Below, piece after piece: positions 3,405 to 62,517 of a stretch of 64,000 bases of DNA. The notes beneath the pieces are model-generated. The model made no database searches, had not been told where the DNA came from, and worked only from the letters and a program-made list of their open reading frames with translations. The number at the start of each line of letters is the position of its first letter. The first letter of the stretch is position 1. Source of the stretch: Protoeuglena noctilucae (Eukaryota); NCBI GenBank assembly GCA_958009085.1, contig OY253681.1, positions 310,001 to 374,000 on the forward strand, written 5' to 3'. Both the position numbers and the translations under genes were made by a program.

Positions 3405-4576
3405 CTTGGCCGGCACAAAGACTCAGGAATGCCCCGATCGGTGCAGTGAGCCGGCGGAAATCGCGCACGAGACCGAGTAAGGCCCAGCAAAGCGTGGATC
3501 GCACTCACGGTCAGCCCGGAGGCCTTCCCTCGACGTTGGCGGACCCAATCGCGTCCGCAAGTCCAGCAGGACCCCTCTTCTCGGCGGCCGCGACGCCAGT
3601 TCTGGCATGACTGGCCGCTGGCGCCCGAGCGCACCTCGCGGGCCGCGCGGGGCCCTCCCCCGCAAAGCATTTAAATCGGCCCACGGGTGTGCGCGCATCG
3701 ATTCTTCCTTGGCCGAGCAGGCCCTCCTCGGGCTCGGCTGGGTCTGTTCGGGGCGACGGGGAGCCTCTGGGCCTCAGCGCCGCGCGGACGGACGCGAATC
3801 GAGGAGTTGCGGCATCGCCGGCGTTCCGGGCCACTCCGTGACGATGGGGCGGGGGAGCAAGCGCGGAGGTGGGCTTGGCGCCCAAGGGGGGCGGGGCCGG
3901 TCCCCGCGCCCCGCGTCTCCTCGCCTTCGCGCAGCGGACCGCCCGATCTCCTCCCCGACCCCGCCTTGTCGCCCGCCACGGCCCCCCTGTCCCGGGCTCC
4001 TGCCCTTTCCCAGGCCCCGCCTCACGGGCCGAGGCGCGCTCTCCCTGCGCCGGGCCCGCGGCCCTTTCCGCGCCCGACACGCTGCGCCAGATGCCGCGCA
4101 GCAGCTTTCGACCATCCGGTCCCACGGCGACCGCCCCGCCGGCGGGGGCAGTTCCTGGGTGGCCGGGGCATCGCGGCAGGGCCCCCTGCCAGCCCCGCGA
4201 CGCCCGAGGCGGGCCCCGCGCCCCGCGCGGACGTCCACCGCGCGACCTGCACCTTTCCTGCGCGGCGCGACGCGCCCCCGCGGACGCATTCCCTGGCTTT
4301 CCCGGGCGCCGGGCGACGTTGCCGCCCTCGCGCGCTGACGGCTCCCGCGCGCCCGGGGGGCTCCTTCCCCGCCATCCGCGCGATCCGCGAGTGCTTTGTT
4401 GTTCCCACATTCCGCATCAGGCCTTTCCAAGCCGGCATCAGGCCCGCAGCGCCGCCGTCAACCTTCGGCCGCAGCGCACCGCCTTGAGCGCTTGCGGGAC
4501 CCGTTTCCCCGCTTCCCTCGCGCGCGGTCCCGCAAGATTGATTGTCACGACTATCCTCGCGGATCTGCATCGTTGT

Positions 4577-13500: not shown

Positions 13501-14922
13501 AGTAATATATATATGGATGGATGCGGTGGGGGGACGAGAGGGGGCTGCCGCACTCGGGTGAGGGGTGTGTTGTTGTGGCGTTATTGTGATAGTGATAAGC
13601 AGGTAGTAAATATACAAACGAGCGAGCTGACAGTTACAGACAGTAACTGAACCGCTAGCAGCCTGCCGCACTCCCTCGCTCCCTCGCTCCCCCCAAAGCA
13701 ACCCTCTCCCCCACACCCACACCCCAACCCTCCACACATTCCAACTCCATTCCATTCCAATTTCCCATATCCCATATAAATATATCCCTTTATACATACA
13801 TTTATTACCCTCCTCTCCCCCCCAGCCCGCGAGCACGCCGCCATGCACCGTCGCTGCGTGGCAGTGGAGAGGCCGCCCCCCGCACCCCCCGTGCAACCCA
13901 CGCCGCCCGGGCCGGGCCTGGCGCCCGCGGGGGAGGGAGACGCGGGGATGGGGGGCGATGATGAGGGGGGCAGTGATCTGGAGGAGGGGGTGGAGGCGGC
14001 GCTAGATGTGGTGCAGAAGTGAGGAATGGTGGGGTTGTGGTTGTTGTGTGTTATTGTTCGTTTGTTACTGGGTGTTACTATGTTGTTTGTTGTTACTGTG
14101 TGTTGCTGTGTGGAAGTGTGCTTACTGTGTTGCTTGGAGTGTTAGTATGACTTCTTGCCCCCACTGCCACCCCCACCGCACCCCACCCACCCCTCACTCA
14201 CACCCATGCCACCCCCACGGCACCCCACCCCCACTCACCCCACTCACCCATCTCCACCCCCCCAGGCTCTCCCGAGACCCCTCGTCCGTTTGGTTCCGCC
14301 GCCCCGTCACCGCTGACGAGGCCCCCGATTACGCCACCGTCATTGCGCGCCCGATGGATTTGGGCACGCTCAGGGACGGGGTGCGCAGGGGCCAGTACCC
14401 CGACACGAGCGCGATATGGGCCGACCTGTCGCTGATATGGGACAACTGCCTGGCGTATAATGGGAGCGACCACGACATTATTCCCGTGATGCGCAAGCTG
14501 CGTGCAAAGGCGGAAAGGCTCTGGGACCAGGCGGGGCTGGAGAGGCCCAGGGGTGGCGGTGGCGGTGGCGGTGGTGGGGGTGGCGGGAGGGGCGGGAGGG
14601 GGGGTAGGGTGAGTGGTGGGGTGGGGGTGGGGGTTTGGATGGGGTAGTGTGCACTAGTGTGAAGTGGAGTAATACCCTACTTTGTTTCATGCGACTGTCG
14701 CTTGGTCGGTACATGAAACGATCCTATTATTTTGTGCCACATGATCTTTTACGTTTGCTATACCACGACACCTCACTCCATCTCCCCATCCCCTCTGCAC
14801 AGGGCGGTGGCCGCCGCGGCAGGCGCCGTGGATCGGATGGGTCAATGAGTGAGGGGGAGTGGGGAGGGGTGAGGGGTGGGGGGGGGTCGGGGAGCGACGA
14901 CGGGCAGTCCGATTCAGACTGA
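4577..14922 (+). CDS. Multi-exon BPTF/NURF301/PTM-like chromatin reader: DDT, WHIM1, PHD, CXXC-like, PHD, three bromodomains
   Basis: DDT AYCLLRAFSWQLKLSPFTFAELVEAV (~5340-5430) and LDSVTWPEYL; WHIM1 FYSLSPLVKASILATLCDDLLDT (~6480-6550); PHD CVLCGLGGSLL|CCDGCPASYHMRC..WLCPEC (6730-7020); PHD CVC..CATCGEQYHLDC..FECPRC (11420-11550); bromodomains at ~12203-12712, ~12907-13468 and ~14266-14550. Spans the N gap, so it could be two genes. Confidence 0.75.
10483..10682. other. Assembly gap (200 N)
   Basis: Run of N inside an intron-like stretch of the chromatin-reader gene. Confidence 0.99.
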
Positions 14923-15700
14923 AGGGCTGGGTGGATGGCTGGGTAGAGAGAGAAAGGGAAGGGGAGAAGGGTTGTTTGATTGCGAGCGGATGGCTGGCTG
15001 GGTAGAGAGCGGGAGTGATGGGAGAAGGGTTGTCTGGTTGGGAGCGGATGGCCGGTTCTGCTGAAAAGCGGGAGTGGGGGGGGTGGGAATGGGGTTAGTC
15101 AGACTGTGAGTGAGAGCGGGGTGGATCGTGAGCGACGGGCGGCTGCAACTATCGGGGCTGCTGTGAGCGCCGGCAGCTATCACGACTGTCCCAACTGCTG
15201 TGTCCCGGACCATAAGAGCTGGCATGGGAGACTGTGGGGTAGCAGCTACCGTTGACGGTCGCAGTGGGGTGGTGCTTGACGAGTGAAATAGCGAGCGGGC
15301 CCGTGCATGGATGGCTGTCAATCGTTGCGGCTGTGGTGTGGCTGCGGTGGGCAGGTGTCGCGGCAGCTGCTAGTGGCCGCCAGAGCGGTGCGCGGACCAG
15401 TCCAGACTGTCTAAGCGAAGCGTGGTGGTTTGAATTGAGAGGCGTGGTGGTTGGGATTGGCTGCTTGCGTAGCGTACGGACACATGGACACAAAACACAC
15501 ACCGACACAAGCGTGTGCTAATTGCGTCGCGCTAGTTCCAACGACGTCATTCAAATCACACCCGCGCCTTTACCAGGCCCTCAGCGGCAGCTCGTGGGAT
15601 CGCATAGACCCTTTCCATGGCACAGCGTTCCGACACAAGCGCTTACTAGACATGTTACGCGACGCCGAACCATTCAAATCACAAAGACCCCCTGCCCCCT

Positions 15701-17412
15701 TCACCATGCCCTCAGCGGCAGTTCGTGGGATCGCATAGACCCCTGCCCCCGAATGACGATACGGTCAGCATAGAGCTCCACCACCCCGTGACACGGGGCA
15801 CCCACGGGGGCCTCCAGTGCGCCCTCTACGGTCACGAAGTGACGGCCGTCCTGATATGGGGGGGACACGGGGGTGGGGGATGAGGTCATGGCAGGTGGGT
15901 CAAGGATGGGTCGCTAGTGTGACTGTGACTGATGGATTAGTATGGGTCAGTATGGATGGATATTATGAGTGATGAAAGCAGCGACAGGTTGAGAAGACAT
16001 GGACCAGCAGCAGTACCGCAGCCCCACCCCACAAACGCCCACCCCATTACACACCCCATCGTACCGCTCTCACCCTGCACGCCTATCCCCCCAGGTGGTC
16101 GTGCCCGCACAGCAGCATTGGAAATGCAGACTATGCAAAACATCAGAAATGCAAATCATGCAGTCATATAATTATGCAATCAGTTCTCACCATGCACGCG
16201 TATCCCCCCAGGTGGTCGTGCCCGCACAACAGCACCGCAAAGGCGGGGGAAGCGAGGAGCGTGGATGCCACTGCCTCCCCGTCCCACGCGCGGTGCATGG
16301 AGCGGCTCTGGCCATCCATCACTGCAAGAAACGAAGATCACGAGGTGGATGAATGATTAGGGGATTGGAGCATGATGCAGTGGCATGTGCACGCGCGGTG
16401 CATGGAGCGACTCTGGCCATCTACAGGGCAGTGCTTGCTTTGCAAACTGACAATGCAGAGTGGCTGTGCATAGCGGCGTCGGCATCCACATCATCCACGT
16501 CAACCTCAGCTCGCGAGAGATGCTCATGGCACTTTGCTCCTCGCCTGGGTGGTGAATAGTAACGAGTACACGGTCTCGGTGCGCCTCCGCCTGACTCAGC
16601 TCCTCTTTCAACCAAACAAGCTGAGCACGGCCCACGCCACCGTTGTACGGCTGCCTGCGTCGGTGGAGAGACGAACTCAGGGTCACTTGCAAGACGCTGT
16701 AGCAGGGCGTTGCGGCATCTACATGTGGCACAGTGGGTGAGGGACATACACCGTTTAATAGGTGTATGCGCCACAATGTGCTATGACTCGACAGCACGTA
16801 CATGCCCCCTCGCCTGTGCACCTCCCCCTCGTGCGCGTCCCACCACTCCTTCCACTCCCCATCCTCCACGTCGTGCGTGCGGAAGGGCTCCATCAGAGGG
16901 TGACTCAGCGCGGTGCTATCGAGGACAATCAACCGCCAGCCGGGGCACAGCTGCTGGCTGAAGTAACACCGCTCCATGCCCAGCCGCGTCATCACGGCCT
17001 CGCGCGGGGCCTGCAGGCAGTGGTTCCCGAACACAAAGACCTTCGGGTGCCGGATACGGTCGAAGAGGGCCGCGGATACCTCCAGGTCGGCCAAACTGCG
17101 CCGTTTCCGCTCCTCCAGGGGCATCGCGGGGTCCCAGTGGCCGTCGATGATGTCGCCCAGGTGCAGCACCACTTTCAAATCCTCCTGTGAGTGTCGAAAA
17201 ATCGCGCGATGATTGAACGGGCGGGCCCGCTGCGGCCCGCGCGTCGAGATTCCCCGTCCCGCACGCACCTTGGCATTCAGGTCATCGACGGCGCGCTCGA
17301 GGACGTGGCGGGCCTCGCGGAAACGAAAGACCGACCCTTCCCACTCGCGGTCGTCCTTGTCCGCATACTGCACGTCGGTCAGGAGGCCCAAACGGGCCTG
17401 CAGACCGGACAT
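15701..17412 (-). CDS. ADPRM: Mn-dependent ADP-ribose/CDP-alcohol diphosphatase (calcineurin-like metallophosphoesterase)
   Basis: GLLTDVQYAD, LHLGDIIDG, FGNHC, YNGGVGRAQLVWL, HHP, LCGHDHLGGY (16200-16236) and HFVTVEGALEAP motifs across about 6 exons. Confidence 0.85.
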
Positions 17413-17632
17413 GGCTCTCGAGTCGTCGCGAGCAAGCTAAAACGCCTCTCAAGATCACGCTGCACCTAGAATTGCGGACGAAGAGCATGATGAGGGCGAA
17501 CAGGAAGCTTCAAGCGCAGCGGGGGCGTGAAATGCATGCCAGTTTTATTTGCGCCAGCACATTGCACGAGAAGCGCGCAGCGGCAAGCAGCCGCGACACT
17601 GTGAGCATGCGCTGCTAGTTGTAATCTTCCCA

Positions 17633-19362: not shown

Positions 19363-19754
19363 AGCAGACGGGAAGGTTGGCAGGCCCAGAGGGAGGGGCA
19401 AACGCGGCCTGGGCGCCGTCAAGCAGCGAGAAAAAGGACGACAAAAAGTACGGGATGCGCGGGCTGCAGCGGGGTGCCGATGCGATGTTACGAGGTCGAT
19501 GAATGAGGTAGTGCATGCGGGACCGCCATTCGACTCGACTTGGTCGCCGCCAGCGGAGGTGCACCAACACACGCTGCCTGGCACGCGTCAGCGCCTCCAT
19601 TTGGGGCTGTTCTCACGGCCATTTCCGCTCTTCGGGGACGTCGTCACTGACATCAGCGCGCACCACCCTTTCGGCGCCACCTACGCTCAGGCTCGCGTCC
19701 TTTGCCCAGTGGACGTCCGCGCAGTAGGGCGCGCTGCGCCCGCCCCTGCCGACC

Positions 19755-22700
19755 ATGGCCTGCGCCACCCAGGCGTTGGGCCGGCTATCTCTCTCGTCCA
19801 GGACTCGCCGACCTCTCGGCACGCGGAGCTTCGGCCAGCGCGCCAGCAGCCGTCGCGCGGAGGATGGCGAGTGCCTTGGTCCTGTGCCTGCTCGATGTCG
19901 CGGGTCCTGCCCCACCATGGCTGGCGATCGCGCTGTCGCTATCGATCAGTCACGCCGAACGCTGCGCCGGCGCAGTCCCTGCTTTCCATCGCGCGGATTC
20001 CTGCGATCCATTGCGTGTGCGTCTTCCCTCGCAGCACGCGGGCCGATGAGGGCGGATCCTCACGCCCGCTCGCGCATCCGATTGCCGCCGTCGCGCTCCG
20101 TCAGCGGGACCGCGGACATACCCGGCATGGAGGGCACCGCGCTGTGCACCTCGCTCACGGCTACGACGGTCGACGGGCAGGCGAGGGGCGGCCCGACGCC
20201 CATGATTCTCCGTGCGCGAGCTGTATATGCTAGCCATAAACGTGCTGCGCCACGTCGCGGCCCGCGAGGAGTGGCTCGCAGGCTACGGCCTGGCGCCATC
20301 GCCCGCAAGCTGCGTCGGCTTGAGGGCGCGCGCCCGCGGGCTCCGCAGATCGCGGAGATGAAGGAGGCGATTCAGAATGGCGCGGATATTGTGGAGATTC
20401 GTCTGGATTTCATCCAGGACCTGGACGCGGCGGGGGACATCCCGCGTCTGGTGCAAGCGAGCGACCTTCCCTGCATCGTCACGTTCCGGCCTTCCTGGGA
20501 GGGCGGGCGCTACGAGGGGGACGAGGCGGAGCGTCTCGCTGCGCTCCGGTGGGCCTGCGAGGCCGGTGAGCGTCTGCTAGCTTCGCAGACGGCAGCGATG
20601 CGAGCGATGTGCGAGGTGCAAGCGCCACGCATGGCTTGCCACCCACGCTCCCGGCCACTCCGCCTCGCTACGCAGGCGCCGAGTTCGTCGATGTGGAGCT
20701 CCGCGTCGCTCAAGTGTTCTTCCGCGCCCCGGGCGACATGCCAGAGACGACGGCAGTCATCGTCTCCCATCACGACTACGAGGGCACGCCAGAGGACCCG
20801 GTGACAGTGTGTGTGGGTGTATGGGTATGTGGGTGTGGATATGTGGGTGCGGGGGTGTGGATGCATGTGTGGGTGTGTGGGTGTGGGTGTGACTGTGGGG
20901 GCATTAGTGTAAGTAGTACTACTCTCACCCTGCCCTCTCACCCTGCCCCTCTCCACTCTGACTCACTCACGCCCGCCACCGCCTGCCCTGAAGGTCCTGC
21001 AAGCACTGCTCCAGGCGATGTGGTCTGTGGGCGCCGACGTGGTGAAGATCGCCACCACCGCCCGCGACGTTTCTGACGCCCGGCGTGTTCTGGCGCTGCT
21101 GGAGGGCCGGCAGGGCCCGACCATCGCGCTGGCGATGGGGGAGCGGGGGGTCGCCACGCGCATCCTGGCGCCCAAGTTCGGGGGATTTCTGACGTTTGGG
21201 GCGCTGTCTCCCGAGAGGCAGAGCGCCCCGGGGCAGCCCACCATCGCCGAGCTGAGGTGAGGGGGGCATGGTTGGGATGCGATGGGGTGTATAGGGTGGG
21301 GTGGCTTGAGCTGAGGTGAGGGGGGATGGATGGGGTGGATGGGGTGTATGGGATGTGTGGGGTGGGGTGGCTTGAGTGTGGTGCATGCGTGTCTGCTTAG
21401 ACCCATGCTGCCTCGCATTCATCCACACCATGCCACAGCCCTATGTCATTTGCTTTGCATCGTTATGCTCAACATTCCCCTCAATCCATGCGCATCTCTG
21501 CAGGGACCTGTACCGCCTCAAGTCGATGAATGCCGACACGCGCGTCTACGGCGTGGTGGGCAACCCCGTGTCGCAGTCCAAGTCTCCCGCCATCCACAAC
21601 CCCGCGTTTGCGAAGGAGGGAGTCAATGCGGTGTACCTGCCTTTCTTAGTCGACGATTTCGGTGCTTTCCTCCAAGCCTACTCCGACCCACACTTCGCCG
21701 GTGAGTGGTGGCAAGTAGCCTCAAAATTGCAGCCGGCGATGCGGCATAGCGGCCCCATGTGATGATCCCAACCATTATGTAACATCTGCCAACACATGTA
21801 TCACTCAAGTACTGCATTGCAGTATCCAGTACCACCCATCCTTCTTCAACCCCCCCAGGCTTCTCCGTGACCATTCCCCACAAAGAAGTGGCGCTGCGGG
21901 GCGCGGATCGCATGGACGAGGTGGCGACGAGGATTGGGGCATGCAACACGCTCGTGAGACAGCCAGACGGGGGACTGCAGGGGTACAACACCGATTGGGC
22001 GGCGGCGCTGGATGCCATTGAGAGGGCTGCGAGGCGAAAGGTGAGGGAGATGGGGTGTGGGTGTGGGGGTGTGTGGGTGCAGGGTGGGGGTTGGGGTGTG
22101 GGTGTGGGTGTGGGTGAGGGTGTGGGTGGGGGTGTGGGGTGTGGGTGAGCATGTGGGTGAGATGGGAGGTGGCCATGCATAAGCCATGAATGGTCCATGG
22201 CTGGTGTCATAAACACACCGTATGATAAGACACAAAGTCCTCTCATCATCCCCACCCATTCCGCACCCCCAGTGGGGCGACTCGCCTCGCCCGCTCGAGG
22301 GCCGCACGGTGGTGGTGCTAGGGGCGGGGGGTGCGGCGCGCGGCATCGTGTTTGGGGCGGCCAGCCGTGGCGCTGCCAAAGTGATCGTGGTCAATCGTAC
22401 GCGCGAGAGAGCGGAGGCGCTGGCGGCGGAGGTGGAGCCGGCCGGGGTGTGCACCGCCGCGAGCCCAGAGGACCTGGACTCTGGCGGCGTCACTGGCGAC
22501 GTTCTGGCAAACACAACGTCGGTGGGTATGACCCCCAAAGTGGACGACTCGCCGGTTCCTGCGGGCGTGGCGGCGCGGTTCGGTGTGGTGTTTGATGCGG
22601 TGTACAACCCCCGGTTCACGCGGCTGCTGCGGGAGGCAAAAGAGGGGGGGGCGGAGGTGGCGGACGGGGTGGAGATGTTTGTGGGGCAGGTGAGGGGGGG

Positions 22701-23026
22701 TGGAGAAGGGAGGGGGTGTGATGGAAACGATAAGTGTGAGGGTGGAGATGTTTGTGGGGCAGGTGAGGGGGGTAGGGGGTGGGGGATGATGTACGAGAAG
22801 GTAGAAATGCACTGGTGAGGGTCTGTTGCAGTCTATCTAGGGCAGTGTGGAGGGGCTGGGGTTGTCGATGACTGATGGCAGAACCGACCATATTGCCTGT
22901 TGCATCACACAAACAACCGTGTGTTTTTGACCCCCCCAGGCCGCTGCTCAGTTCAAGTACTTCACCGGGAAGGATGCCCCCGTGGATCTGATGACAAGGG
23001 TCGTTGAGGAGTCGCTGGCCAAGTGA
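19755..23026 (+). CDS. aroDE: Bifunctional 3-dehydroquinate dehydratase / shikimate dehydrogenase
   Basis: GADIVEIRLDFI, TFRPSWEGG, IVSHHDY, VKIAT, LAMGERG, SAPGQPT (type I DHQase); GNPVSQSKSPAIHN, SVTIPHK, GACNT, GYNTDW, GAGGAARG, NTTSVGM, DAVYNP, GVEMFVGQ|AAAQF (SDH). Stop TGA at 23024-23026. Confidence 0.95.
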
Positions 23027-23639: not shown

Positions 23640-26211
23640 TCACTCTTGCACCTTCTTAATGAGCATGAAGCTGTGCACGTAGTCCATCCCGAAGTTCTCC
23701 GGGTCTTTGGCCGCCTCCGCCTCCATCCTCTTAAACAGCTCGTCGCTCAAGGCGCGGCGCTGGTCGGGGGAGCGGGAAGAATCCAAGGCAGACTCGAAGG
23801 TGGAGTTGGACCAGGTGCTGCGAGGATAATAATGAGAATTACTATCATTGGGATCTGAGAAAGTAGAGTTGGACCAGATGCTGCGAGGATAATAATGAGA
23901 ATTACTATTATTGGGATCTGAGAAAGTAGAGTTGGACCAGATGCTGCGAGTGAGTGGTAGTGGTGAGAGTTAGTATCAATACCAACATAGCCAATGGTAG
24001 TAGCGGTAAGGGTTGGTATCGATACCACGGTAACCAACTCAACTCAGCAATGCCGCCATAGTCAAATCAACATCCCATTCCATACACAGCCACATCCCTA
24101 CCCTATCACTCGCAACGCACCGGAACGTGGGGATCATCCACTTGGCGTGTGCCGCGGGGTCTCCCTTGTTAGCCCGGTAAGCCTCTCGGAAGGGGCAAGG
24201 CGTGACCACGAAGGAGTGGTGGAGCAGGCGCAAACCCGCATTATGCACGGCGCCGCCTGCAGTGAGATGAGAGGGTTGGGATGTGCTGTGCGGGGGGATG
24301 AGACGTGATGTGCTGCGCTGTGTGTGTGGGAATGAGACGACCCAAGCCCCACATTCCCCACTACCCATCACCCCACCCATCCCTACCCCCCTCACCGTCC
24401 GCAAAAACCCCCACTACCCACCGCACCTCATCCCACCCAGTCCCCGCCCACACCCAACTCCCCTCACCCTCCGCGAACGCCCCCACCGCCTCCTCCTCCG
24501 TCCGGTAGTGGTTGCAGAAGGTCGTCCTCTCATACTCCTCTTTGCTAATCAACCCCTCCTCCGCCATGCCACGCCACAGACGGTCCATCGTGTCATACAT
24601 CCCGGGACCGATGTCGGTCTTGCCCAGCCACCACCCGCGGGGATCCTCGGCGAAGTTGGCGATGACGAGGTGACCCCCCGGGCGCAGCTCGCGGGCGCGG
24701 GAGAGGAGAATGGACTCGAAGTCACGGGCCGCCTGCTCCTTGAACTTGGCCTTCTCGGTGCCCGTCGCCTGCGGGGGTGTGTGTGTGGGTGTTGGGCGTC
24801 GGTTGGACATCGGTAGTGCGCTGTGTGCAGCTTGGCCTTCTCGGTGCCCGTGGCCTGCGGGGGTGCGTGCGTGTGTTGTGTGGGTGTGTGGGTGTGTGTT
24901 GAGGGTTTCAGCATCGATGCTGACTTATGTGCAACGTGGCATGCTCGGTGCCTGTGGCCTGCGGGTGTGTGTGGAGGTGGGGGTGTCTGGCGTTGAGTGC
25001 TTGAGCATCGATGCTGAACTATATGCAGCTTGGCCTTCTCGGTGCCCGTCGCCAGGTGCAGTGGCTTAGTACTACCAAGCGTATGCAGTACCTACATGTA
25101 ACGACATGTATACTCGCCTGCGTGGAGTGGATGCCGGTGGAGATGGTGCAGGGGAGCTTGGAGAGCCAGTGCATGGCCGTGAAGGAGACAGAGAGGTCGA
25201 CGGAAGAAGAGGGGAAGGCCTGCTGGAAGAAACTGGTGCCGCTGCGAGGGTGGAGTGGTTGTGGCATGTGAGTGGGTGATGTAAGGGAGGTTGATGATAG
25301 CTGTAGCTGCCGTGGGTGGCAGTGGCATGTAAGAGGTGAGGGAGGCGATGGCGCTTGTATGAGAGGGTGAGGACGGCTAAGGCAGGCTGTGATGCGAAAG
25401 CAGTGCTGAGCGACCACACAGTACATAGTCTATCGTCGCTGCTCCCCGCATCTCACCTGGCCACCACAAATACCCCGGGGTGCTTGGTCAGCGGATCCAC
25501 GCCCCCCTTGACGCCCTCCACAGGCCGGATGCCCTGCGGCGGTGGGAAAAGGCTTGGCTTTGCAATTGCCATGCTCGCACCGAAGCATGCTGAAGTGCAC
25601 TGCCGCCATCCGTCGCGCCGCCCGGCGCCGCGGGCGGATAGCACGATGAATGCCTCGCCTGGGTGTGGAAGAACAGGCTCTTGAAATCGCCGTTCGGCTG
25701 GTCCTCGTAGCAAATGCAAATCTCCTTGCTGGGACCCGCCTTGGCCCGCACCGCCTCCACCACGCGGTGCATCAGGGGCAGCGAGGTGCCGCCGTCTGCA
25801 GTGCCGAAATCCGCGATCGTGAAGGGACCGGCGCCGGCGAGCGGGGTCTGCGGGGAGCCGCGGGGGGAGGGCTATCGGCTTCGCGGCCACTTCGGGAGCC
25901 GCTGCGCGTCCGGCTGAAGCCCGCCGCGCTCGCGCGGTCAGCGCCGGGTGCAAGATAACATGGTGGTTTGCAGACGCTCCGAATCGCCGGCTCATCTCGC
26001 GAGGCCAGGCGCGCCGACGGTGCTGAGTGGGCATGAGTGGCCCCCTACACACGGCGAGCGCACACCGCGGTCGTACCTCCTCCAGGGCGCGCATCACGAG
26101 CTGCGTTGCATTCTCGATCACAGTGAAGCATCCGCGAGTGGCGATGGAGTAGAGGCCTTCTCCGTCCGCGCCAAGCGGCACGTGAACTTTTCCGAAGGCG
26201 TCCTGCGTCAT
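23640..26211 (-). CDS. SABATH (Methyltransf_7) SAM-dependent methyltransferase
   Basis: Spliced model: MTQDAFG...GEGLYS, FTIADFGTADGGTS, YEDQPNGDFKSLF, SGTSFFQQAFPSSSVDLSVSFTAMHWLS, QAARDFESILLSRARELRPGG, IPTFRTWSNSTF, GMDYVHSFMLIKKVQE*. These are the hallmark SABATH motifs. Confidence 0.9.
23803..23950. repeat. 63-bp tandem repeat (~2.3 copies) overlapping the last splice acceptor of the SABATH gene
   Basis: gagttggaccag(g/a)tgctgcgag starts at 23803, 23866 and 23929; the first two copies continue gataataatgagaattactat..tgggatctgagaaagta. Confidence 0.9.
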
Positions 26212-26451
26212 GACGAACCCGTGGTGGCTACCGACCGCCGAGACGACGTGCTATCGACCCAAGCGTGTCTGCAGATGGAGGAGGGGCGGCGCGGTATCTC
26301 AGCAAGCAAGATCCCCCAGGTCAGACAGCCAGTGTGCCCGTGTGCCCGAGATGCGATCCACCCGTTGCGCTTTCCCTTCCCCAGTCGGGTCCCACGCCTC
26401 GAAACCCACCTGATTTCCATAGGTGGGTGATCGAACCGCCTCAAGATCATC
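26212..26451. promoter_or_regulatory. Putative bidirectional promoter between the SABATH gene and the dehydrogenase-oxidase fusion gene
   Basis: Only 240 bp separate the two divergent ATGs (26211 on -, 26452 on +). No specific motif identified. Confidence 0.5.
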
Positions 26452-29400
26452 ATGCACGCGCGCCTGCTAACGGTTTGCGGGGCTGGGCCCGCCCCGGGGG
26501 CACGCGCGGACGGCCGGGCGGCCGTGCCAAAGCGTAGCCGCTTACTCGGTCGCCCAGTGAGTCCGTTAGTGCTATCGTACGACACTCCGCAAGGACGGCT
26601 CCTCGTTGGGTGTGATGGCCCGCTGCAGACGAGTTTGCCGGGTAATGGAGGCCTCAGGTGTGGCATGTCATGCGTGTGGCTCGAGTGGGCGCCGACCGGG
26701 CCTCGGTCGCGCGCGCGTAGTGGGCACAACCCCTGCCACACCCACACATGCCCGCACTCCCCGCCCGCTGCTTCTCCAGCAATGATACTTTGCTGTCCAC
26801 ATTGTTTACCCTATCAAGAAACGGCGAGAGCGCCACGATCACACGTACAGCTGCCCTTGCGCGCATCCCGGGTGCCTTGGGATGCGCGGGGATGCGTGGC
26901 CCCGCGCGCGCGTCCCGGGCCTCGCTGCGCGGAGGAAAGCATTTGGCGTCCTCCAGTTTCATCCTTTCTCCTCGTCAGCATCGATGGCGGCGATATTTTT
27001 CGTCGCATGGGACGCCGCGCGGCCCTGCATACGGGCGCCACCCGCAATTCCCGTGTTCGCGCCTGCTCGCAGGCTCTGGAAATACGCGAGCCCCGAGGAC
27101 GCCATCAAGGAATGCTGTGCCCTGAGCTCGGGGATGTCAAAGAAGGTGAGCTGCACCACGCGCGGCTCCGCCCGACCCCTTGCAAGCCCCGTGGCGGCGC
27201 AGGTGCCCGGCCCTCGCGCGCGGCTCGGCGCCGTGCCATGGGGCGCCCGGCCGCCGCATCGCACGTATCTTATCAACACATTCCGATCCCCCTGCGCAGC
27301 ACACGGTATATAACACGGGCTTCAGCGGCGCCAAGCTTGTGGTGGATGCGATCGGCGACCCAAGTGATGTGGACGAGATTCGGCTGATGGACAGCGTGGC
27401 CAAGGCGCTCGCGGAGCTGCAGGGTGCGATTTACACGGGCTGCGACTTGGGCACGACCGAGGAGGACATGACGTACCTGTCGAGCTTGACGCCCTACGTG
27501 CTCGCGTCCATCGAGAACCCAGTCGGTGCGTGCGTTGGCAGATGCGACGAACTGGCAGATGCGATGAGCAGCCCCAGATGGTCTCTACAAGGGGTGGCAA
27601 ACCCCTTCAGCCGTTACTCGCACAGCGGATGGCACCAGTGCTAGGACAGCGCTGTCTGCCTGCCATGTGATTGTGCGATCCACCTATGCCATCCGACTGC
27701 CCCGTCCCGTGACCCTGCCCCCCGCAGACGCCAACGCCTCGACGGGCCACGGGGTGTTCGGGTCCATCCAGGGCGCGCTCGACAGCCGCGGGGGCGTGGC
27801 GGGCAAGACCTTCCTCGTCAAGGGGACCGGCAAGGTCGGGAGCGTGACGGCGCAGCTCCTGGCCGGCGCGGGCGGGCGCGTGCTGACCTACGACATCAAC
27901 GCCGCCGCCGCCGACATCCCCGGCTGCGAGAACGTGAGCCACATGGACTGGCGGGACGTGGAGTGCGACGTGTTCGTGCCGTGCTCCGTGTCGGGGTTCA
28001 TCAACGAGGACGTCGCAAGCCGGCTCAAGTGCTCCCTGGTCATCGGAGCGTCGAACGTCCCCTTCGCCGACGGCGCGGCCCTCTCGGCGCTCCTGGCCCG
28101 TGGCATCGACTTTGTGCCCGAGGCCGTCTCCTCCGCCGGGGCGGTCCTGGGCGACAGCATCGAGCTCTACGCGGCGGACGCCTACCGTCACGCGCGACCC
28201 AGCCAGGTGTACGCCTTCGTGCGCTCCCTGACCCGCCAGAAGACGCGCGAGCTGTTCGAGGCGGCGGCGGAGCGCGGGCGACCCGCCGCGCTGTGCCTGG
28301 GGGACGTGGAGGAGGACCCCTCGTCTGAGCCGTGCGGGACGAGGTTCCGGGCGTTTGTGGAGGATGCGACGGAGGAGGTGGACACGCTGGTCATCGGTGC
28401 CGGGATGGCCGGCACGGCGGCGGCGTACTACCTCACCAAGGACGCGCCGGGTCACCGGGTGGCGGTGGTCGAGAGCCGCTCGGTGGCGAACCAGTGGGCC
28501 TCCAGCCATGGGCAGTCGCGGATGTACCGCCGGATGTACAGCGACGCGTACTTTTCCCAGATGCAGTCGCGCGCGCTCGAGCTGTGGCGCGAGATTGAGG
28601 CGGAGCGCGGCGTGGCGCTGCTGCGGGAGAACGGGCTGCTGTTCTACGGCGAGACGGATACGGGCGAGACGGTCGAGGGGTCCGTGCCGGGCGCGAGGGC
28701 GGTCATGGAGGAGCTGGGCATCCCGCACGAGTACTTCGACACGGGGGCGGCCATGGCCGAGCGCTGGCCGGACATGAAGGCGGACGAGGCGTTCCAGGGG
28801 GTGTTCGAGGCCACGGCGGGCAAGATCGATAGCTCGCTGGCGTGCCGGGCCATGGTGGACGGCGCGGTGGAGCGCGGGGCGCGTCTGTACGAGAACGAGG
28901 CGGTGGTGGACCTTTGGATCGACCGGAAGGGCGCCATGCACGCCGCCACCTCCCAGGGGCGCTTCTTCCGGGCCGGCAAGGTCGTGGTGGCGGCGGGCGG
29001 GTGGACGCGGCGCGTGCTGCAGCACCTCAACGTGGATATGGACCTGGAGGTGCACAGCGTCGCGTACGGCCACTACCGCGTGCGGGACGTGGAGACTGCG
29101 GCGCGCATGCCGCAGTGGTTCTGTTTCCGCAAGAAGCGAGGGGAGCTCGACGGGGGTCTGTACTTTGGATTCCCTCCCGAGGTGACGAGCGCGGGAGCTG
29201 GGCGTGGCTGCGGCTGGCACAGAGCCTGGTTGCGCTCGTTGCGCATGGATGTGACGATTGCGTGGCTGGCAGCGCGGGTCAGGTCGCGTGTTGCGGGTAG
29301 CAAGCAGCTGCACCAGGTAACAGCTGCACCCGCTCGGCTCGTCGTCGCAGGACCCGAGCGTGCCCGTCATCAAGTGCGGCATCGACTTCACCCCCGATGC

Positions 29401-29968
29401 CATGGGCCTCATCCGCGACTCGATGTCGGGATTCAAATACCAGACGGAGAAGGAGATCGCCAAGCTCATGGACGACTTCTTCTTCGAGGCGAGTCCCGTT
29501 ATGTTCCCCACTTACATTCTCTCATAATTTGCAGCGGTGGACGTGCTGACTCAGTGCGACGCTCCAGCCAGGTCAGCTCGCCTTCGCTTGTCGACCGTCG
29601 CCGATGCATGGCTCGCCACCCGCGCGCAGAACTGGCCGTGCATCGAGGAGCGCCTCGACATCCAGTGCTCGCCCTACACCATGACGCGCGACCAGTACTT
29701 CGTGTTGGGCGAGATCCCCGACATGCCGCAAGTGATCGTATTCAGCGGCGGGTGCGGGCGCGCGTTCAAGTTCGGGCCGCTGCTGGGGCAGTGCCTCGCG
29801 GACCTGGCCCTCGGCAAGGAGCCAAGCTACGACATCGCGCCCCTCTCGCCCTCCCGGCCGGCCGTCGGCCTCCAGGTCACGCCCGTGACGCCGCACACGG
29901 CCTCGCTCAGCCCGGCTGCGGCAGCACGGCGCGCGGCCGTGCAGAGGGACCTGGCGCGCACGGCCTGA
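26452..29968 (+). CDS. Fusion protein: Glu/Leu/Phe/Val-family amino-acid dehydrogenase + MSOX/NikD-type FAD-dependent oxidase
   Basis: Exons 26452-26657, 27073-27145, 27300-27525, 27728-29181, 29351-29488, 29630-29968. Dehydrogenase motifs GNGGLR|LWKY, GMSKK|H, GFSGAK, YTGCDLGT, TGHGV, GTGKVG, GASN. In the same exon follow VIGAGMAG and SSHGQSRMYR, and later CSPYTMTRDQYFVLG and SGGCGRAFKFGPLLG. Confidence 0.9.
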
Positions 29969-30256
29969 GGGATCGGATTGCGATTAGAGTGCCTTTTTCG
30001 CGTTAGGTTTTCCCCCATGGCGCCTGACAGGGCCTCCTGCCCTGCTCTTCTGCAGCATCGCGATGCTGCTATGCATACATAGCGCTGCCCTAAAAGTAGC
30101 GGTCCAGCTGGTGCCGTCGTGTGACACTGCAGTTCTCGAGACCTCGACTTGACCAACGCTGCGTGCGCTGCTGCGCGTAGTTAGTGAACCTCTCGGCGTT
30201 CCCGCGACAGCACGCAAGCGCATGGGGCTCGTGCGACCCTGGGGCCGGCCACAAAC

Positions 30257-31621
30257 ATGCTAGCGTCGCGCAGGGGCGTGGCTGCCCTGATGGAGGCGGT
30301 TTGTCGTGGGACGCCTGCCGCGGTGGGATTAGGGGAGGGCGCGGGTCAGTCCCTGACAGGCGCAAACGAGCGCAACATGTCGAACGCATCGTCGTCGGGT
30401 TCCCTCGACGCGGCGCAGGCGCTCGGCAGGCCCCTGCCCCGTCGAGCACAAACTCCAGCGCTGCAGCCGGGCCCCCCGGGCGCGCGCTCGAATTCGGAGT
30501 TCCCCGCGTTACAGAGGAGGTACTCCAGCACTCCGGAGTCCGTCGACGTCAGCCCGGCCTCCTTCTACGACGTGGGCATGTCGACGAACATACGGTGGCA
30601 AGCCACCGCCGTGACGCGGGCGCAGAAGGCGAGGCCGCGCGGGATCGCCGCGCAGACTCCTTGGCGACAGTATCAGCTGCGCCACGAACGCGGGGCTCGC
30701 TCTTTCGCTCGCAGGAGAGGATTTTGGGCCAGAAGGGCTGCGTCGTTTGGTTCACGGGCCTGAGCGGTTCGGGCAAGTCCACGGTGGCCGCCATCGCCGA
30801 GAACATGCTTTCGTCCATGGGTCGCGCCACGGCGCTTCTCGACGGCGATAACGTGCGGCACGGGCTGAACAGGCGAGCCCTCGGGGGATGCAGCACGGCT
30901 CCCCTCCGCGCGCCGCGCGCCAACCGGGACGCGCCATCTCCCCGCAGCAACCTCGGGTTCTCGGCCACGGACCGGGAGGAGAACATCCGGCGCGTCAGCG
31001 AGGTGGCCAAGCTGATGGCGGACGCGGGCCTCATCACGCTGGTCGCTTTCATCTCTCCATACCAGGTGAGGCGGCGACGGGAGGCCGCGGGCGCAGCGCA
31101 GACATCCCTGCGATCGCCGGCGCGACGTCCTCGCGCCAACTGCGCCGCAGAAGGACCGGCGCCGGGCGCGAGGCATCATGGACCCAGGGCGCTTCATTGA
31201 GGTCTATATGAAGACCCCGCTGTCCGTCTGCGAGACGTGCGACCCCAAGGGACTCTACAAGGCGGCCCGGGCCGGCAAGATCCGCGGCTTCACAGGCATT
31301 GACGACCCGTACGAGGAGCCCGAGGTGGGTGAGCGCGTGCTGCGTGATGTGTGCTGTGATTTCGCGCCGTTGCCCCTGCCACTCCTTTCGATCGGCTGCG
31401 AATGAGATGCTGCGAAAGGTATGCATTGTGCACGTTTGCTCCTCTCAGCACAACCCTGGTAGGGCTGCGTTAGCATGGCTCCGCATACACGACCGCATGT
31501 GCAGGCACCTGAGGTCGTGCTGGAGCACAAGTGCCCCAAGGGCACCGACCACTCCCCCGCGGAGCTCGCCCAGATGCTGGTGGACCACCTGGGACGGCAG
31601 GGCCTGCTCCAAGCTGACTAA
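30257..31621 (+). CDS. APK: Adenylyl-sulfate (APS) kinase
   Basis: [18 protein letters not shown] (P-loop), [68 protein letters not shown]. Confidence 0.95.
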
Positions 31622-31853: not shown

Positions 31854-33314
31854 TTAGAGCACGGCGGCCGTCACGGCGTCCAGGGCCGCCAGGGCCTTGG
31901 CGAAGGCCTTCTCGGCCTTGGCGCCGTCCTTCTTCTGCACCCACAGGTCCGTCTCCTCGATGGCGCGGATGAAGTCGTTCTTCAGGGCCTGGGCCTTGGC
32001 GCGCTCAGCCTTGGGCTTGACCTCCGCGAGCGTGTTGAGGTCGAAGCGGAGGGTGCCGAGCTGGCGGCGGAGCTGCTCCTTGGCCTCGGTCCAGTACGCC
32101 TTCTTGATGTAGGGGAGCACGTCGTTCTTGATGCGCTTGGTCGACTCCGTCACGCGCGTCTTGGTCAGGGCCAGGTCGCCGCGGGGCTGCGCGAGGCCGT
32201 CGCGCACCGCCTGGGGCAGCGACAGGTCGCGGGCCTCGTAGATGATGTCGAAGCCGTTCTTCTTGGCCTTGCGGTCATCGAAGATGTCCACGGGCGTCTG
32301 CAAGCACGCGGGGGCAGTCACGCTCAGGCTCGCAGGCTTGTGGCTCGGGTCGGCCCCGATGGGCGCATGAGAGGACACAGAAGCGATGCAGCGCGGCAAC
32401 GCACCACGGCGAACGCGGGGGCCGCGATCGTGAGCGCCAGCAGGCCAGCAGCGATCGACTTCTTGTCGAACGCGCGGGCAGCCACCGCCTTGCGCCTGCG
32501 TGCGAGGTAAGGGAACGTCTGAGATCAGACAGCGCGCTCGGCAGGGGCCAAAGTGAGCAGCGGACCCGGAAACGGTCGCCGAACTCGGCCCCGCGCACAG
32601 CGAGCCCAGTTGCGCCGGACGCCGCGGTGACAACTCGTCGAAATTGAGCGATGCGGGACCGTGCGATCCCCAACCGAGGCCGCCCGGCGCGGGACGGCCT
32701 GCTAGATGACGCCCGGGATCCACACCAAATCTGGCCCGCGCGCGCGTGATGCGGGCGAAAGGGGCCCGCGCGCGGCCCATCTGAAGATTAAGGAGCCAGG
32801 AAATCAGGGCGGACGGTCCCGGGACCGCGCGACACTCACGTAGCGGGGGCGACGGGGGCTGCGAGCAAGAGAGGGCAGGGGGACGCGTCAGCGACGATGG
32901 GGCCGCCCGAGCACATCCCATCCGATGCATGAAGCAAATCGGCGATCGGCACGAGCTCCCGGAGGGTCAGGCGCCCCCGCACGAGCCGGGGTCCAGCCTC
33001 GGCGCGATTTCCCCGCCCGATGCGCGGCGGGGGCGGGCCAATCGACTGCCCCAGGCATCCGAACGCAACAAACAAGCCCTCGGCTCACCCTTGACGGACG
33101 CGGCCGAGAAAGCGACAGCGCTGCGGGCAGCGAGGGGGACAGGTCGGTGAGGCAACGGCCCGCGCGCGCGCCGACGCTCTCAGACACGCGAGGGCGCGTA
33201 TTCGAGCTAGAGATGCACGGATACGGCCCAGGGCCCCGAGACTCGGCGCGGGGCGACCCCCTCGCGCGCGGGGCCCGGGATCGACAGCCCAGCCCCTGCC
33301 GCTAACCTCTGCAT
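31854..33314 (-). CDS. psbQ: Photosystem II oxygen-evolving enhancer protein 3 (OEE3)
   Basis: TPVDIFDDRKAKKNGFDIIYEARDL...YIKKAYWTEAKEQLRRQLGTLRFDLNTL. Upstream exons give a bipartite transit peptide (AVAFSAASVK...AAGLLALTIAAPAFA). Confidence 0.93.
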
Positions 33315-35275: not shown

Positions 35276-38039
35276 ATGCAGGTGGCAGCCACGTCTCTGG
35301 GTCGCTTCACTCCATGCCAGGCCACGCAACGTCAGGCTCCTGCGCCTGCCCCTGCGCCGTTCCTGCGTATGACGCTGCATCGCGCCCCGTTTGTGCAGAC
35401 TTGCGATTCGTCGACGAATTGTAGAAGCCATCCAGGATGCCGCTCAGCGCCCCACAGGCGGCATTCATTGAGGACAAGTTCAGTGACAGCGCAGACAAGT
35501 ACTGGGAGCTCTTTTACCGCCAGAACGGCAACCGATTATACAAGGACAGACACTACTTTGCCCGGGAGTTTCCGGAGCTCGTCTCCCGGCCCGGCTGCGC
35601 GGTGCTCGAGTGCGGCTGCGGCGCCGGCAACTCGGCGTACCCTCTGGTCGAGGAGAACCCGACCTGCCGCGTCTACGCGTGCGACTTTTCGCCGCGCGCC
35701 GTCGAGCTCGTCAAGCGTCATCCCCTGTACGCTTCGGGACGCGTCACGGCCTTCGTCGCCGACATCACGCGGCCCGACCACCTCCCGGGCAGCCATGTCC
35801 CTCCTGGGACCGTCGACTTCGCCACCTGCGTGGTGACCGTCTGCTCGCGATGCCTCTGCCCTGCCGCTGCGACGGACGCTCTGCAGCGAAGGAAACCTGC
35901 ACGGTTGCACCCGCACGCAGTTTGTTCTGTCGGCCATCCACCCGGATCGGATTGCTGAGGCGGTCGCCAACATCAAGGCGACGCTGAAGCCGGAGAGCGG
36001 GACGGTGTGCTTCCGTGACTATGCAGAGGGCGACCTGGCTCACGTGAGGCGACGCACAGCACGATAGCGATGGCCCTGCCGACGGTGCAGGTCAGCGTGC
36101 GAGGGACCGGTCACTGCTACGTCACCGCTTCGCACGCAGAAAAAGCTGGCTGGCATGGATGGCAGGGACCGTGGCCGCATGCTGTCCGGTGAGGGCTTGT
36201 GGATAAGGGCGCGGGCTTTGCCCGTCATGCACACAGCCCTTATGCCCCTCTCACCACAACCCGCCCCGCAGATTCCTTCTACGTTCGCGGCGACGGCACG
36301 TGCTGCTACTTCTTCAGCGAGGACGCGGCGCTGCGTCTGTTCGAAAATGCGGGGTTCAAATGCCGCAGCCTGGTGGTGCAGGAGCGATGGGTCGACAACC
36401 GGGCGCGGGGCATCCGCATGCACCGGCGGTGGATCCAGGCGAGCCACAAGCGAGGGTGCTGTGTGCTTTGTGCTGTGTCGCCATCGCTTGGCTGTGTCTG
36501 CTGCGCTCGCGACTTCGACTTGCGATGCGGCATGTCAGCGCTGCACGTCAGCCCCAGGAGTGCCTTGCGCCATGGCTTGCTTGTCTTACCATTCATTGAC
36601 ATGTTCAACCAGTGCTTTTTCGTCACCCCAGGGCGTCTTCTCCCTCGACCCCTCGACTGTGAGAGAGGCGTACCGCATCACCATCAAAGAGACAGAGACA
36701 GGCGAGAGCACGTATTATGGAGCATATTATCGTGCTTTGTGTGTGCCTCACTCACAGCTGCTGGTGGACTGCTGCTTGACTGTCTCTGACCTCTTCCCTT
36801 TGACAGTCTCTGACCTCTTTCCTTTACTCGCAGTGCGGGTGCCTGAGGGATGGGACCCGGAGCGGGGCGGCACGGGGGAGTCGAGGGGCGCTTTCTGGCT
36901 ATTGGAGAGGTCGGGAGATGAGACAAATCGCGATGTTGAAGGACCGAACGCAGCCGGGCCGGTGAGGCATCGCAGCGTGGTCGGCGTGCTTGGGGCTTGA
37001 TGCGCGTGACGCTTGACTGAGGCGGTGCGGCCGAGGTACTGAGACTTAACTTGACTGAATGAGTCGATTGCAGGACTGGCGGACGTTTCAGCTGCCGGAA
37101 GAGAGCGCGGAGGGCAAGAGGGCCAGGCGGATGCAGACGGTGGAGGCTGCCAGGGGCGCACGCAAGAGACTGCGCGAGAGGGGAGTGCAAGTGGCTGCGA
37201 GCGTGGGGGCAGGCAGACAGGCGACGGAGCAGGGCTGCGACAGTGTGGGAGGCATGGCAGGGGCTGCACTGGACGCCACCGCTGGTCTGCTCAGGTGGGT
37301 GCGACGGTGACTGGTCACACTCAGCGCTGCGTGCATGCGTGTCGAACATGCTGTGATGCCAACCCATTTTAATCATAGTGGTCACGTGTTTGGTTTTGAT
37401 CCCAGGCATTGGGGACGGGCCGCTGAGTCAAGGGATGCGGGCGCGGGTGTCACGTCACCATCCAGCCCATCCGCTGCCGTCGTCTGCGTCATTTGCCACC
37501 GACAAACATCCGAGGCCGCGATATCGGATGCGGAGGCGACGCACGGGGTGCCCGTGAGCGCGCTGCTGGAGCGGGGGGTGGAGGGTCACGAGAGGGGCGC
37601 GGTGGTGGTGGTGGTGGTATCGCTGCCAATCGAGGCCGCATGCGAGCGCTCGACTGGCGATGCGTCTGCGTCTGCATTCGGGCGAGGTCAAGAAGACGAT
37701 AGCTACCTCGACGACGTGCTGCTGGCCTGTGCTGGGCTCATGCACGCCCGCCCAGACGCACGCATCGTGCTGTTGCGGTGGGATGGGGAGGGTAGGGTGA
37801 CGGGCGAGCTGAGTCGCGTAGTGCAACTGCACAGCGCTCCGTCCCGTCCCTGGCGCCTCAAATCGCCTGGGGCGGGTGCGGAGGTCCGGGCTGTGGCGTT
37901 GTCGGGTGCCGAGAGCCAAGCGCTGCTGGCAGGGCGGGGTGCGCGGCAGGAGGGTGCCGGGCCTGCGCAGGGGGCTGATTTCGTGCTGATGGGCGTGTTC
38001 CAGCAACAGAGCCGCGGGCTGAGGGACGTCTGCGCTTAA
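35276..38039 (+). CDS. METTL6: METTL2/6 (Trm140)-like tRNA N3-methylcytidine methyltransferase with a C-terminal extension
   Basis: KYWELFYRQNGNRLYKDRHY, VLECGCGAGNS, YACDFSPRAV, FVLSAIHP, FRDYAEGDLA, FYVRGDGT, RRWIQ. Further exons continue to ~38039; this 3' part is less certain. Confidence 0.8.
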
Positions 38040-40020: not shown

Positions 40021-41109
40021 ATGCTGTCTGCTCGCATCGCCTTGCGCGCTGGACTGCTGGGCCGCGACACACTTGGGGCGAGGGGACGCGCGCTGCGGTC
40101 GCCCATCATGGCGGCCAACCCGAACAAGGGGGCGATCAGCAAAGTCGTCTTCGTGACGGGGAACGAGAAGAAGCTTCGGGAGGTGCGCAGCAGCGAGCTC
40201 GTCGAGTGGAACGCGCTGCGCATCGGTCGTGCCACCCCGTGGGGGGCGGACCACGGCTGCGAGTGCCAAAGCGTTGACTGCGATGGACACGTACTGCCTC
40301 CCGCAGGTGGTGGCGATCCTCAGCGAAGGGCATCCGCTGCCGTTCGCGGTGGACAAGCAGTCGGTGGACCTCCCCGAGCTCCAGGTGCCGCCCTGCAGGG
40401 CGCACGCCATCCACCGCAGCGCCATTCGCCGCAAATGTCGATCGCGCTCGTCTCCGCCGGCATCGGACCGCTGCTCTCTCGTCGCAGGGGGAGCCGGAGG
40501 ACATTGCCAAGGAGAAGTGCCGCCTGGCCGCCAAAGCCGTGGGCGGGCCGTGCATGACCGAGGACACGTCGCTTTGCTTCAATGCGCTCAAGGTGCGGCC
40601 CGCTCCGTCTCGGGCAGGCCCTCGACACTACCCGCACTTGTTGCACCGAAGTTCAGCCCAGCTCGTGCATCGCAGGGGTTGCCGGGCCCGTACATCAAGT
40701 GGTTCCTTGAGAAGCTCGGACACGACGGGCTCAATCGGATGCTGGACGGCTTCCCGGACCGCTCGGCCTACGCGCAGTGCATCTTTGCGTTCTCTGAGGG
40801 CCCTGGCCACGAGCCCGTGACGTTCGTGGGGAGGACGCAGGTGACGGGCGATCATCCGGAATAAAGTTAACGCCATCGCGGCGATGCCCGTCGTCTCATC
40901 GCTGCGCTGGCGCTGCCTCGCAGGGCAGGATCGTGGCGGCGCGCGGGGACAACCAGTTCGGGTGGGACCCGGTGTTTGAGGTGACGGAGGAGGGGCCGGG
41001 CAAGGGATCGACGTACGCGGAGATGGACGCGGCGGTGAAGAACGGACTCAGCCATCGGTACCGTGCCCTCGACGCCCTCCGCCAGCACCTACTGGCGACC
41101 TACAGCTGA
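40021..41109 (+). CDS. ITPA: Inosine triphosphate pyrophosphatase (Ham1 family)
   Basis: [63 protein letters not shown]. Confidence 0.95.
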
Positions 41110-62300: not shown

Positions 62301-62517
62301 GGGAAATCACGAGCGTGAGTTTCCCCGTGACACAGCTCGGCACCGTGAAGCACAGTGACTTCCCTGCGCCTGTCGGCATGAGAACGAACACATCGCGGCG
62401 CTGCAAGGCTGCTAGGATGGCATCTTCCTGCCCAGGGCGCCACGCCGTGTGCCCCAATTCCGACCGGACACGCTGGGCTCGGCTGCGCAAAACAGCGAGC
62501 CCCTCGCCGCCAGACAT
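59361..62517 (-). CDS. RECQ: RecQ-family DNA helicase (RECQL3/RECQL5-like) with TFIIS-like C-terminal helical domains
   Basis: MPTGAGKSLCF, ISPLIALM, VDEAHCISTWGHDFRPAY, ALTATAT, SFNR, YHAGL, ATIAFGMGIDKPDVR, YQESGRAGRDG and RQC Zn ligands CRR..CCDVC. Confidence 0.92.

Follow-up and report, generated by a model that had tools for sequence, protein, structure and literature searches.

A 64,000-nucleotide stretch of Protoeuglena noctilucae DNA (contig OY253681.1, positions 310,001 to 374,000), here called the window, carries a gene that fuses a Leu/Phe/Val-type amino acid dehydrogenase to a flavin oxidase of the MSOX/NikD fold. Next to it, head to head, lies a gene for a SABATH methyltransferase. 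Judged by its sequence, the fusion probably converts lysine to picolinate. That homarine (N-methylpicolinate) is the end product of the fusion and its methyltransferase neighbour together is moderately likely. Homarine is a ubiquitous marine metabolite and a common osmolyte of phytoplankton.

The fusion gene runs from 26452 to 29968 on the plus strand and encodes 811 amino acids. Its six exons are 26452-26657, 27073-27145, 27300-27525, 27728-29181, 29351-29488 (with a GC donor) and 29630-29968; this model is open and is matched by RNA contigs. Residues 35-369 (26554 to 28329, exons 1-4) form the dehydrogenase domain, and residues 383-783 (28369 to 29881, exons 4-6) the oxidase domain. The first 34 residues (26452 to 26553) are basic, rich in Ser, Thr and Ala, and have a low predicted local distance difference test (pLDDT) score; they are a probable transit peptide for an organelle, perhaps the plastid. 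The AlphaFold model as a whole is confident, with a pLDDT of 88.5 and a predicted TM-score (pTM) of 0.86.

The dehydrogenase-oxidase fusion is real. PF00208 (E 1.5e-16) and PF01266 (E 3.7e-36) are both found within a single 1454-bp exon, which means that the junction is not a gene-model artefact. RNA support for this gene and the methyltransferase comes from assembled contigs of four marine metatranscriptome runs. One 2709-nt contig (run X1) and one 2751-nt contig (run X3, same study) each cover all six exons and all five joints, with no split into two mRNAs there; run X5, from a second study, shows four of the five. This bears out an earlier note on this DNA, which had proposed a six-exon fusion, and every motif quoted in it is present in the 811-residue translation.

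The gene is also not alone. The protein is identical to P0048 from JGI/Logan. Of 47 matches to the fusion exon, 21 are near full length: two of these represent this gene and the other 19 are further fusions, with 39-67% identity to this exon. Named carriers are Pedinophyceae (the nearest), Chloropicon, Pseudo-nitzschia multistriata and Corethron. In the ESM Atlas, a eukaryotic cluster of 68 members shares the two domains; Haptophyta are commonest among the nine members that have a phylum. Plasmid searches gave distant relatives only, with best rows at or below 34% identity.

The earlier note overlooked the third enzyme of the module. The methyltransferase gene (PF03492, 23640 to 26211, minus strand) encodes 380 amino acids in seven exons: 26211-26077, 25847-25659, 25533-25457, 25241-25118, 24768-24468, 24256-24121 and 23817-23640. 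All six joints are seen in RNA contigs, and spliced contigs of both genes occur in the same RNA runs. The two start codons are separated by 240 bp (26212 to 26451), a probable bidirectional promoter. The protein scores above the Pfam cut-off and has PDB matches among the SABATH enzymes, a family of salicylate and fatty acid O-methyltransferases and xanthine N-methyltransferases. It differs from these in its branch, which is marine, algal and bacterial and linked to the module, and in its presumed target, a pyridine ring nitrogen.

Two introns of this gene (23818-24120 and 24769-25117) carry the beginning of the next exon in repeated copies, the last of which is used in the RNA. Of the 11 introns in the two genes, three have GC donors (window positions 29489, 25658 and 25117).

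In bacteria, the same enzymes occur as neighbours. The window methyltransferase is homologous to that of bacterial operons and of the triple fusions described below. Via the oxidase, 35 bacterial genome loci were found, in Prochlorococcus, Okeania, Dapis, Scytonema, other filamentous cyanobacteria and Myxococcota. All three genes, for methyltransferase (MT), dehydrogenase (DH) and oxidase (OX), are present in 26, and three more have DH and OX with the contig ending there. The gene order is MT-DH-OX in 29 of 29 fetched loci from Cyanobiaceae (the Prochlorococcus family) and in three of three Myxococcota matches. GC content is 55-65% in 27 of these 29 Cyanobiaceae loci, which would fit Synechococcus-type genomes. 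Among 401 sampled Cyanobiaceae genomes, 74 have DH and 71 have MT, and all 71 are within the 74. The methyltransferase query gave no match in five genomes without the cluster, in a search that had no positive control.

Fusions occur in other arrangements as well. Profile searches found three full DH-OX-MT triple fusions (P0137, P0138 and P0139), of which P0138 is WP_248942631.1 from Shewanella surugensis. Pairwise fusions include OX-MT in Porphyridium purpureum, DH-MT in Pterosperma, and MT-DH forms. Recurrent linkage, together with fusion in varied orders, means that the three enzymes form one pathway; the sequence data show it to be common to algae and marine cyanobacteria.

The earlier note also suggested horizontal acquisition. 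There are indeed close bacterial relatives, but the Shewanella surugensis oxidase groups with algal and not with cyanobacterial oxidases, and the trees, which cannot be rooted, give no direction. The domain trees were made with quick or LG+G4 models, omitting short or divergent rows, including five named outer rows.

What the dehydrogenase acts on can be approached through its pocket. The alignment holds 162 family sequences, chosen by similarity to the window protein, and six controls. Counts were made after reduction to 70% identity, among members with a residue at the column in question. In leucine dehydrogenase (LeuDH), specificity is reported to be set by L40, A113, V291 and V294, and the first and last of these correspond to K89 and S380 in glutamate dehydrogenase (GluDH); the catalytic residues of LeuDH are given as K68, K80 and D115 (PMC2723916). 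The pocket register was fixed by a GluDH control showing K and S.

At the four positions, the window protein has N65 (26644), G140, V308 and D311 (28153). The family has Asn at the L40 position in 70 of 72 members and Asp at the V294 position in 80 of 82. The six controls have L/L/A/K/M/M and I/V/V/S/V/V there. This is neither the hydrophobic pocket of the leucine and valine dehydrogenases nor the Lys/Ser pocket of GluDH. An Asp where GluDH binds a carboxylate points to a cationic side chain, and the pocket therefore suggests a substrate such as lysine. The catalytic equivalents are kept (K93 in 78/79, K105 in 78/80, D142 in 81/82), and with them the key lysines that the earlier note had pointed out.

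The protein does belong to the Glu/Leu/Phe/Val dehydrogenase superfamily, where the leucine, phenylalanine and tryptophan dehydrogenases (PF00208/PF02812; 1LEH, 1BW9, ScyB) are most like it. It has a PF00208 domain and the two-domain fold, with residues 35-369 matching phenylalanine dehydrogenase at Z 41.4. It shares K68, K80 and D115 with these enzymes, and also the Rossmann Gly motif and the acidic residue that follows this motif. It differs by L40 to N, A113 to G, T134 to L, G290 to A and V294 to D, and it falls in a clade of its own (support 100/100, unrooted tree). The altered pocket noticed earlier holds up in that N65 and D311, which the earlier note had not named, support a non-standard substrate; the Gly of its TGxD motif is not special, since it is also found in two cyanobacterial control dehydrogenases.

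It could be asked if these are simply an ordinary leucine or phenylalanine dehydrogenase and a sarcosine oxidase, joined without a shared pathway. The database names say so. Both domains however score below every curated NCBIfam cut-off (86 bits for the dehydrogenase, against a ScyB cut-off of 600), the pocket is remodelled, and separate trees place each domain in its own clade, away from canonical enzymes. The three genes are also repeatedly linked and fused. This very improbable explanation is by now largely refuted.

For the oxidase, residues were counted over 52 non-redundant relatives, with NikD numbers counted from the sequence match to NikD. The best PDB match by sequence is NikD, at 136 bits versus 117 for MSOX. 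Conserved in the window protein are R436, E485, K661, D665, Y715 and K746. The columns equivalent to NikD R53 (R in 52/52), E101 (E in 49/52), Y258 (Y in 50/52), D276 (D in 52/52) and K358 (K in 51/52) are nearly invariant, and the window protein itself has F at the Y258 column. Y258 is named in the title of a NikD PDB entry. We take R53, E101, D276 and K358 to have roles in NikD, and presume that NikD also has W355 and a covalent FAD at C273. Compared to NikD, the oxidase has about 27% identity, R or Q in place of W355, and no conserved flavin cysteine: the C273 column has Cys in two of the 52, the window protein among them.

The oxidase has the MSOX/N-methyltryptophan oxidase fold (Z 49.5), and the equivalents of MSOX R49, R52, K265, Y317 and K348 are kept. 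In contrast, H269 is D, GHGFK has become G[RQ]AFK, H345 is not kept, and the C315 column has Cys in five of the 52. Scores against the MSOX and N-methyltryptophan oxidase models are below cut-off (soxA_mon 204 against 257, PRK11259 180 against 480), and the clades are separate. Although its mechanism may resemble that of NikD, the oxidase is a separate subfamily and not a NikD member.

The Pfam scan and structure prediction thus found both expected domains (PF00208, PF01266) and both expected folds (phenylalanine dehydrogenase, MSOX/NikD). A covalent-FAD cysteine in the CSPYT motif, as the earlier note had it, did not survive: C712 is one residue before the MSOX-type Cys column and is Cys in 27 of 52, and it was rejected as a conserved flavin anchor.

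A second line of evidence comes from 46 metagenome loci found via the dehydrogenase. Five have the same oxidase, nine have a more distant oxidase from the NikD side, and 13 have none in the available DNA; a methyltransferase is present in 10. In locus L119 the oxidase is nearly orthologous to NikD, scoring 411 bits with it and 94 with MSOX. The dehydrogenase in that cluster has 37% identity to the window domain, with the same pocket motifs, and sits inside the same clade. The oxidase of L097 is also NikD-like (246 bits, against 103 for MSOX). L097 furthermore has a permease with PRK10836 as its best model, below cut-off; we take PRK10836 to be the lysine permease LysP.

In nikkomycin and caerulomycin biosynthesis, a lysine 2-aminotransferase is reported to feed piperideine-2-carboxylate (P2C) to the oxidase (PMC4021061, PMC8149447). 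By analogy, the dehydrogenase appears to take the place of this aminotransferase beside NikD-type oxidases. No aminotransferase was found in the 6-kb flanks of the NikD-orthologue clusters L119, L121 and L125. The cyclic imine intermediate that the earlier note suggested is supported as well.

The systems most alike are NikC/NikD (SanL) of nikkomycin and CaeP1/CaeP2 of caerulomycin, which share the proposed chemistry, from lysine through P2C to picolinate, and the oxidase fold. Where these begin with a pyridoxal phosphate (PLP) aminotransferase, the module begins with an NAD(P)-type dehydrogenase, which is fused to the oxidase. The partner here is a methyltransferase, and not a CoA ligase or nonribosomal peptide synthetase as in the nikkomycin and caerulomycin systems. 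The system differs from the known lysine-to-picolinate route by its dehydrogenase entry and its methyltransferase exit.

Several related loci are of interest in their own right. The bacterial loci L119 (162-8106), L121, L122 and L125 combine the dehydrogenase and a NikD near-orthologue with a one-module polyketide synthase, a PLP cysteine-synthase-like enzyme and an allene-oxide-cyclase-like barrel; by gene content this looks like an undescribed pyridine natural-product cluster. L090, L095 and L097 have the dehydrogenase, a NikD-like oxidase, EamA/MatE exporters and no methyltransferase match, and may make and export free picolinate. In P0251, P0258, P0269, P0272 and P0274, a flavin L-amino acid oxidase (PF01593) is fused to a NikD-like oxidase.

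A second oxidase type, also PF01266 but distant and without a PDB match at 1e-15, is fused to the same dehydrogenase in many probably eukaryotic loci (L091, L103, L107, L109-L118, L123, L124 and L127; proteins P0162 and P0165). The methyltransferase is head to head with this type in L092 and L124, and fused to it in P0162. It is possibly a convergent replacement.

The proposed pathway has three steps. First, the NAD(P)-linked dehydrogenase would remove the alpha-amino group of L-lysine, with the epsilon-ammonium held at D311 and N65. The resulting keto acid would close spontaneously to P2C. Second, going by NikD chemistry, the flavin domain would carry out a four-electron oxidation of the ring with O2, giving picolinate. 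Third, the SABATH enzyme would methylate the ring nitrogen with S-adenosylmethionine to form homarine. Methylation may also come before aromatisation, as the data do not order these steps. Fusion would keep the reactive imine near the enzyme that consumes it; the pTM of 0.86 for the fused model is a hint, no more, of physical channelling.

An acidic pocket might also bind a sulfonium. The methyltransferase would then make S-methylmethionine for the dehydrogenase, on the way to dimethylsulfoniopropionate (DMSP) or a related compound. A gene for adenosine 5'-phosphosulfate (APS) kinase adjoins the fusion in the window, but no such gene recurs in the surroundings of the 35 bacterial loci. An amine oxidase of the MSOX/NikD fold has no clear role in such a route, and the link of the dehydrogenase to NikD orthologues indicates lysine. 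This makes the sulfonium route improbable.

That the pathway ends in homarine is further suggested by transport. L070 has a BCCT transporter after the operon, while three filamentous-cyanobacterial loci and L087 have a ProX-type binding protein ahead of the dehydrogenase; such neighbours point to a betaine-type product. In Synechococcus WH8102, genes SYNW0229 to SYNW0233 are annotated as BetT, putative sarcosine oxidase, hypothetical, possible leucine dehydrogenase and hypothetical (PMC2874817). Among the 102 genes changed after salt shock, SYNW0230, SYNW0232 and SYNW0233 all went up (PMC2874817), with log2 values of 0.45, 0.40 and 0.47 at q 0 in its supplement.

The distribution of producers is also suggestive. 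Homarine was reported in both tested Synechococcus strains, WH8102 being a producer, in four of six diatoms and in one Emiliania strain, reaching up to 18 mM in Synechococcus after a published correction (PMC8269262). The green alga Platymonas is described as a producer too (PMC3721227). The dehydrogenase module is present in each of the broad groups to which these producers belong.

According to Heal et al., no homarine biosynthetic pathway had been characterised (PMC8269262). A literature search found no paper naming homarine biosynthetic genes, with most subscription journals and bioRxiv supplements outside its reach. Breakdown genes, the homABCDER operon, were published in 2026 (PMC13236597). 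If the homarine proposal holds, this operon concerns the same compound; it degrades homarine in heterotrophs, and the text available names no biosynthetic genes (PMC13236597).

A number of observations weigh against picolinate and homarine as products. In structure, oxidase residues 383-783 nearly tie between NikD (Z 48.7) and MSOX (Z 49.5). All 52 relatives have R or Q at the NikD W355 column. The oxidase clade (support 100/99) lies outside the NikD orthologues, with NikD represented by the near-orthologue from L119, and the unrooted tree joins the oxidase, NikD-side and MSOX clades at one node, which does not put the oxidase closer to NikD than to MSOX. The NikD resemblance claimed earlier thus stands by sequence, but not by structure or tree. 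In 19 of the 46 metagenome loci, the dehydrogenase is paired with the second type of oxidase. Six of the 35 bacterial loci have the oxidase with no partner in the available DNA, four of them beside an ABC importer.

Lone oxidases beside a branched-chain/urea-type ABC importer are seen in L001, L002, L010 and L035, from filamentous cyanobacteria; they may be catabolic.

Several of these same points would suit a saturated cyclic betaine such as N-methylpipecolate, pipecolate or proline betaine being made or turned over. In that case the dehydrogenase would be an imine reductase or deaminase, and the oxidase, with its MSOX K265 and Y317 equivalents and its structural tie with MSOX, would work on a secondary amine, as MSOX or pipecolate oxidase does. 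The importers beside lone oxidases, and the substitution by the second oxidase type in many eukaryotic loci, would fit as well. The oxidase however lacks MSOX H269 and H345 and has the equivalents of NikD-type E101 and D276, and a NikD near-orthologue is found as partner of the same dehydrogenase. Fusing an oxidative demethylase to its own methyltransferase would also create a futile cycle. A saturated betaine is therefore rather unlikely.

Further objections concern the last step and the producers. Six of the seven solved relatives of the methyltransferase, by PDB match, are named carboxyl or O-methyltransferases. The best match is a fatty acid O-methyltransferase, and one relative is a xanthine N-methyltransferase. 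Three Cyanobiaceae genomes have the dehydrogenase only, and frameshifts affect the dehydrogenase in one of 31 picocyanobacterial loci and the methyltransferase in one. The WH8102 locus tags were matched to the module by gene order and annotation only. SYNW0231 and SYNW0232 are both mapped to Val/Leu/Ile metabolism (PMC2874817), and these two open reading frames may be a split dehydrogenase, in the stronger producer. Matches between producers and the module are at the level of broad groups and not of strains. Dinoflagellates and prasinophytes are described as non-producers (PMC13236597), and the DH-MT fusion of Pterosperma, a prasinophyte, has a degenerate middle. Heal et al. also cite a quinolinate route to homarine, from animal work (PMC8269262).

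The same first two steps, or their five-ring analogue, could lead elsewhere: to methyl picolinate, or from ornithine to pyrrole-2-carboxylate, methylated or not. SABATH enzymes mostly form methyl esters, an acidic pocket suits ornithine as well as lysine, and dehydrogenase-oxidase pairs without a methyltransferase adjoin EamA/MatE exporters. On the other hand, betaine transporters in operons and salt induction suit a zwitterion and not a volatile ester. The SABATH family does include a xanthine N-methyltransferase, and NikD works on a six-membered ring. Such another product is unlikely; homarine, from lysine, is preferred.

The window as a whole is GC-rich, intron-bearing DNA, with PsbQ and other ordinary genes near the fusion, as in a photosynthetic eukaryote; the Pedinophyceae homologue makes a green alga probable. 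Closest are a dehydroquinase-shikimate dehydrogenase (19728-22815, plus strand), the APS kinase (30181-31618, plus) and PsbQ (31857-32966, minus). None of the three was seen to recur around the 35 bacterial loci, and the APS kinase and shikimate genes were rejected as module parts. A Ham1-family gene lies 10 kb away (40157-41106, plus). A Ham1-like gene also flanks the picocyanobacterial operon, probably by coincidence. Other ordinary genes encode an ABA4-like protein, a DDT/bromodomain protein, a class I methyltransferase, a PRT6/UBR1 ligase, a DEAD-box helicase and a HAD-riboflavin kinase (2590-17466, 35425-35955, 47208-53920 and 60589-63998).

On balance, we favour the view that these two genes are the missing homarine pathway in its algal form, a pathway that marine Synechococcus, some Prochlorococcus, filamentous cyanobacteria and myxobacteria would have as an operon. 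The Leu/Phe/Val family would then gain a new activity, that of an NAD(P)-dependent L-lysine 2-dehydrogenase, and a dehydrogenase with such an acidic pocket would be a useful biocatalyst for basic amino acids. If this is true, the three genes would serve as markers for homarine producers, and thus homarine production, in ocean metagenomes. Chloropicon, Pedinophyceae, Porphyridium and some Prochlorococcus would be the predicted new producers.

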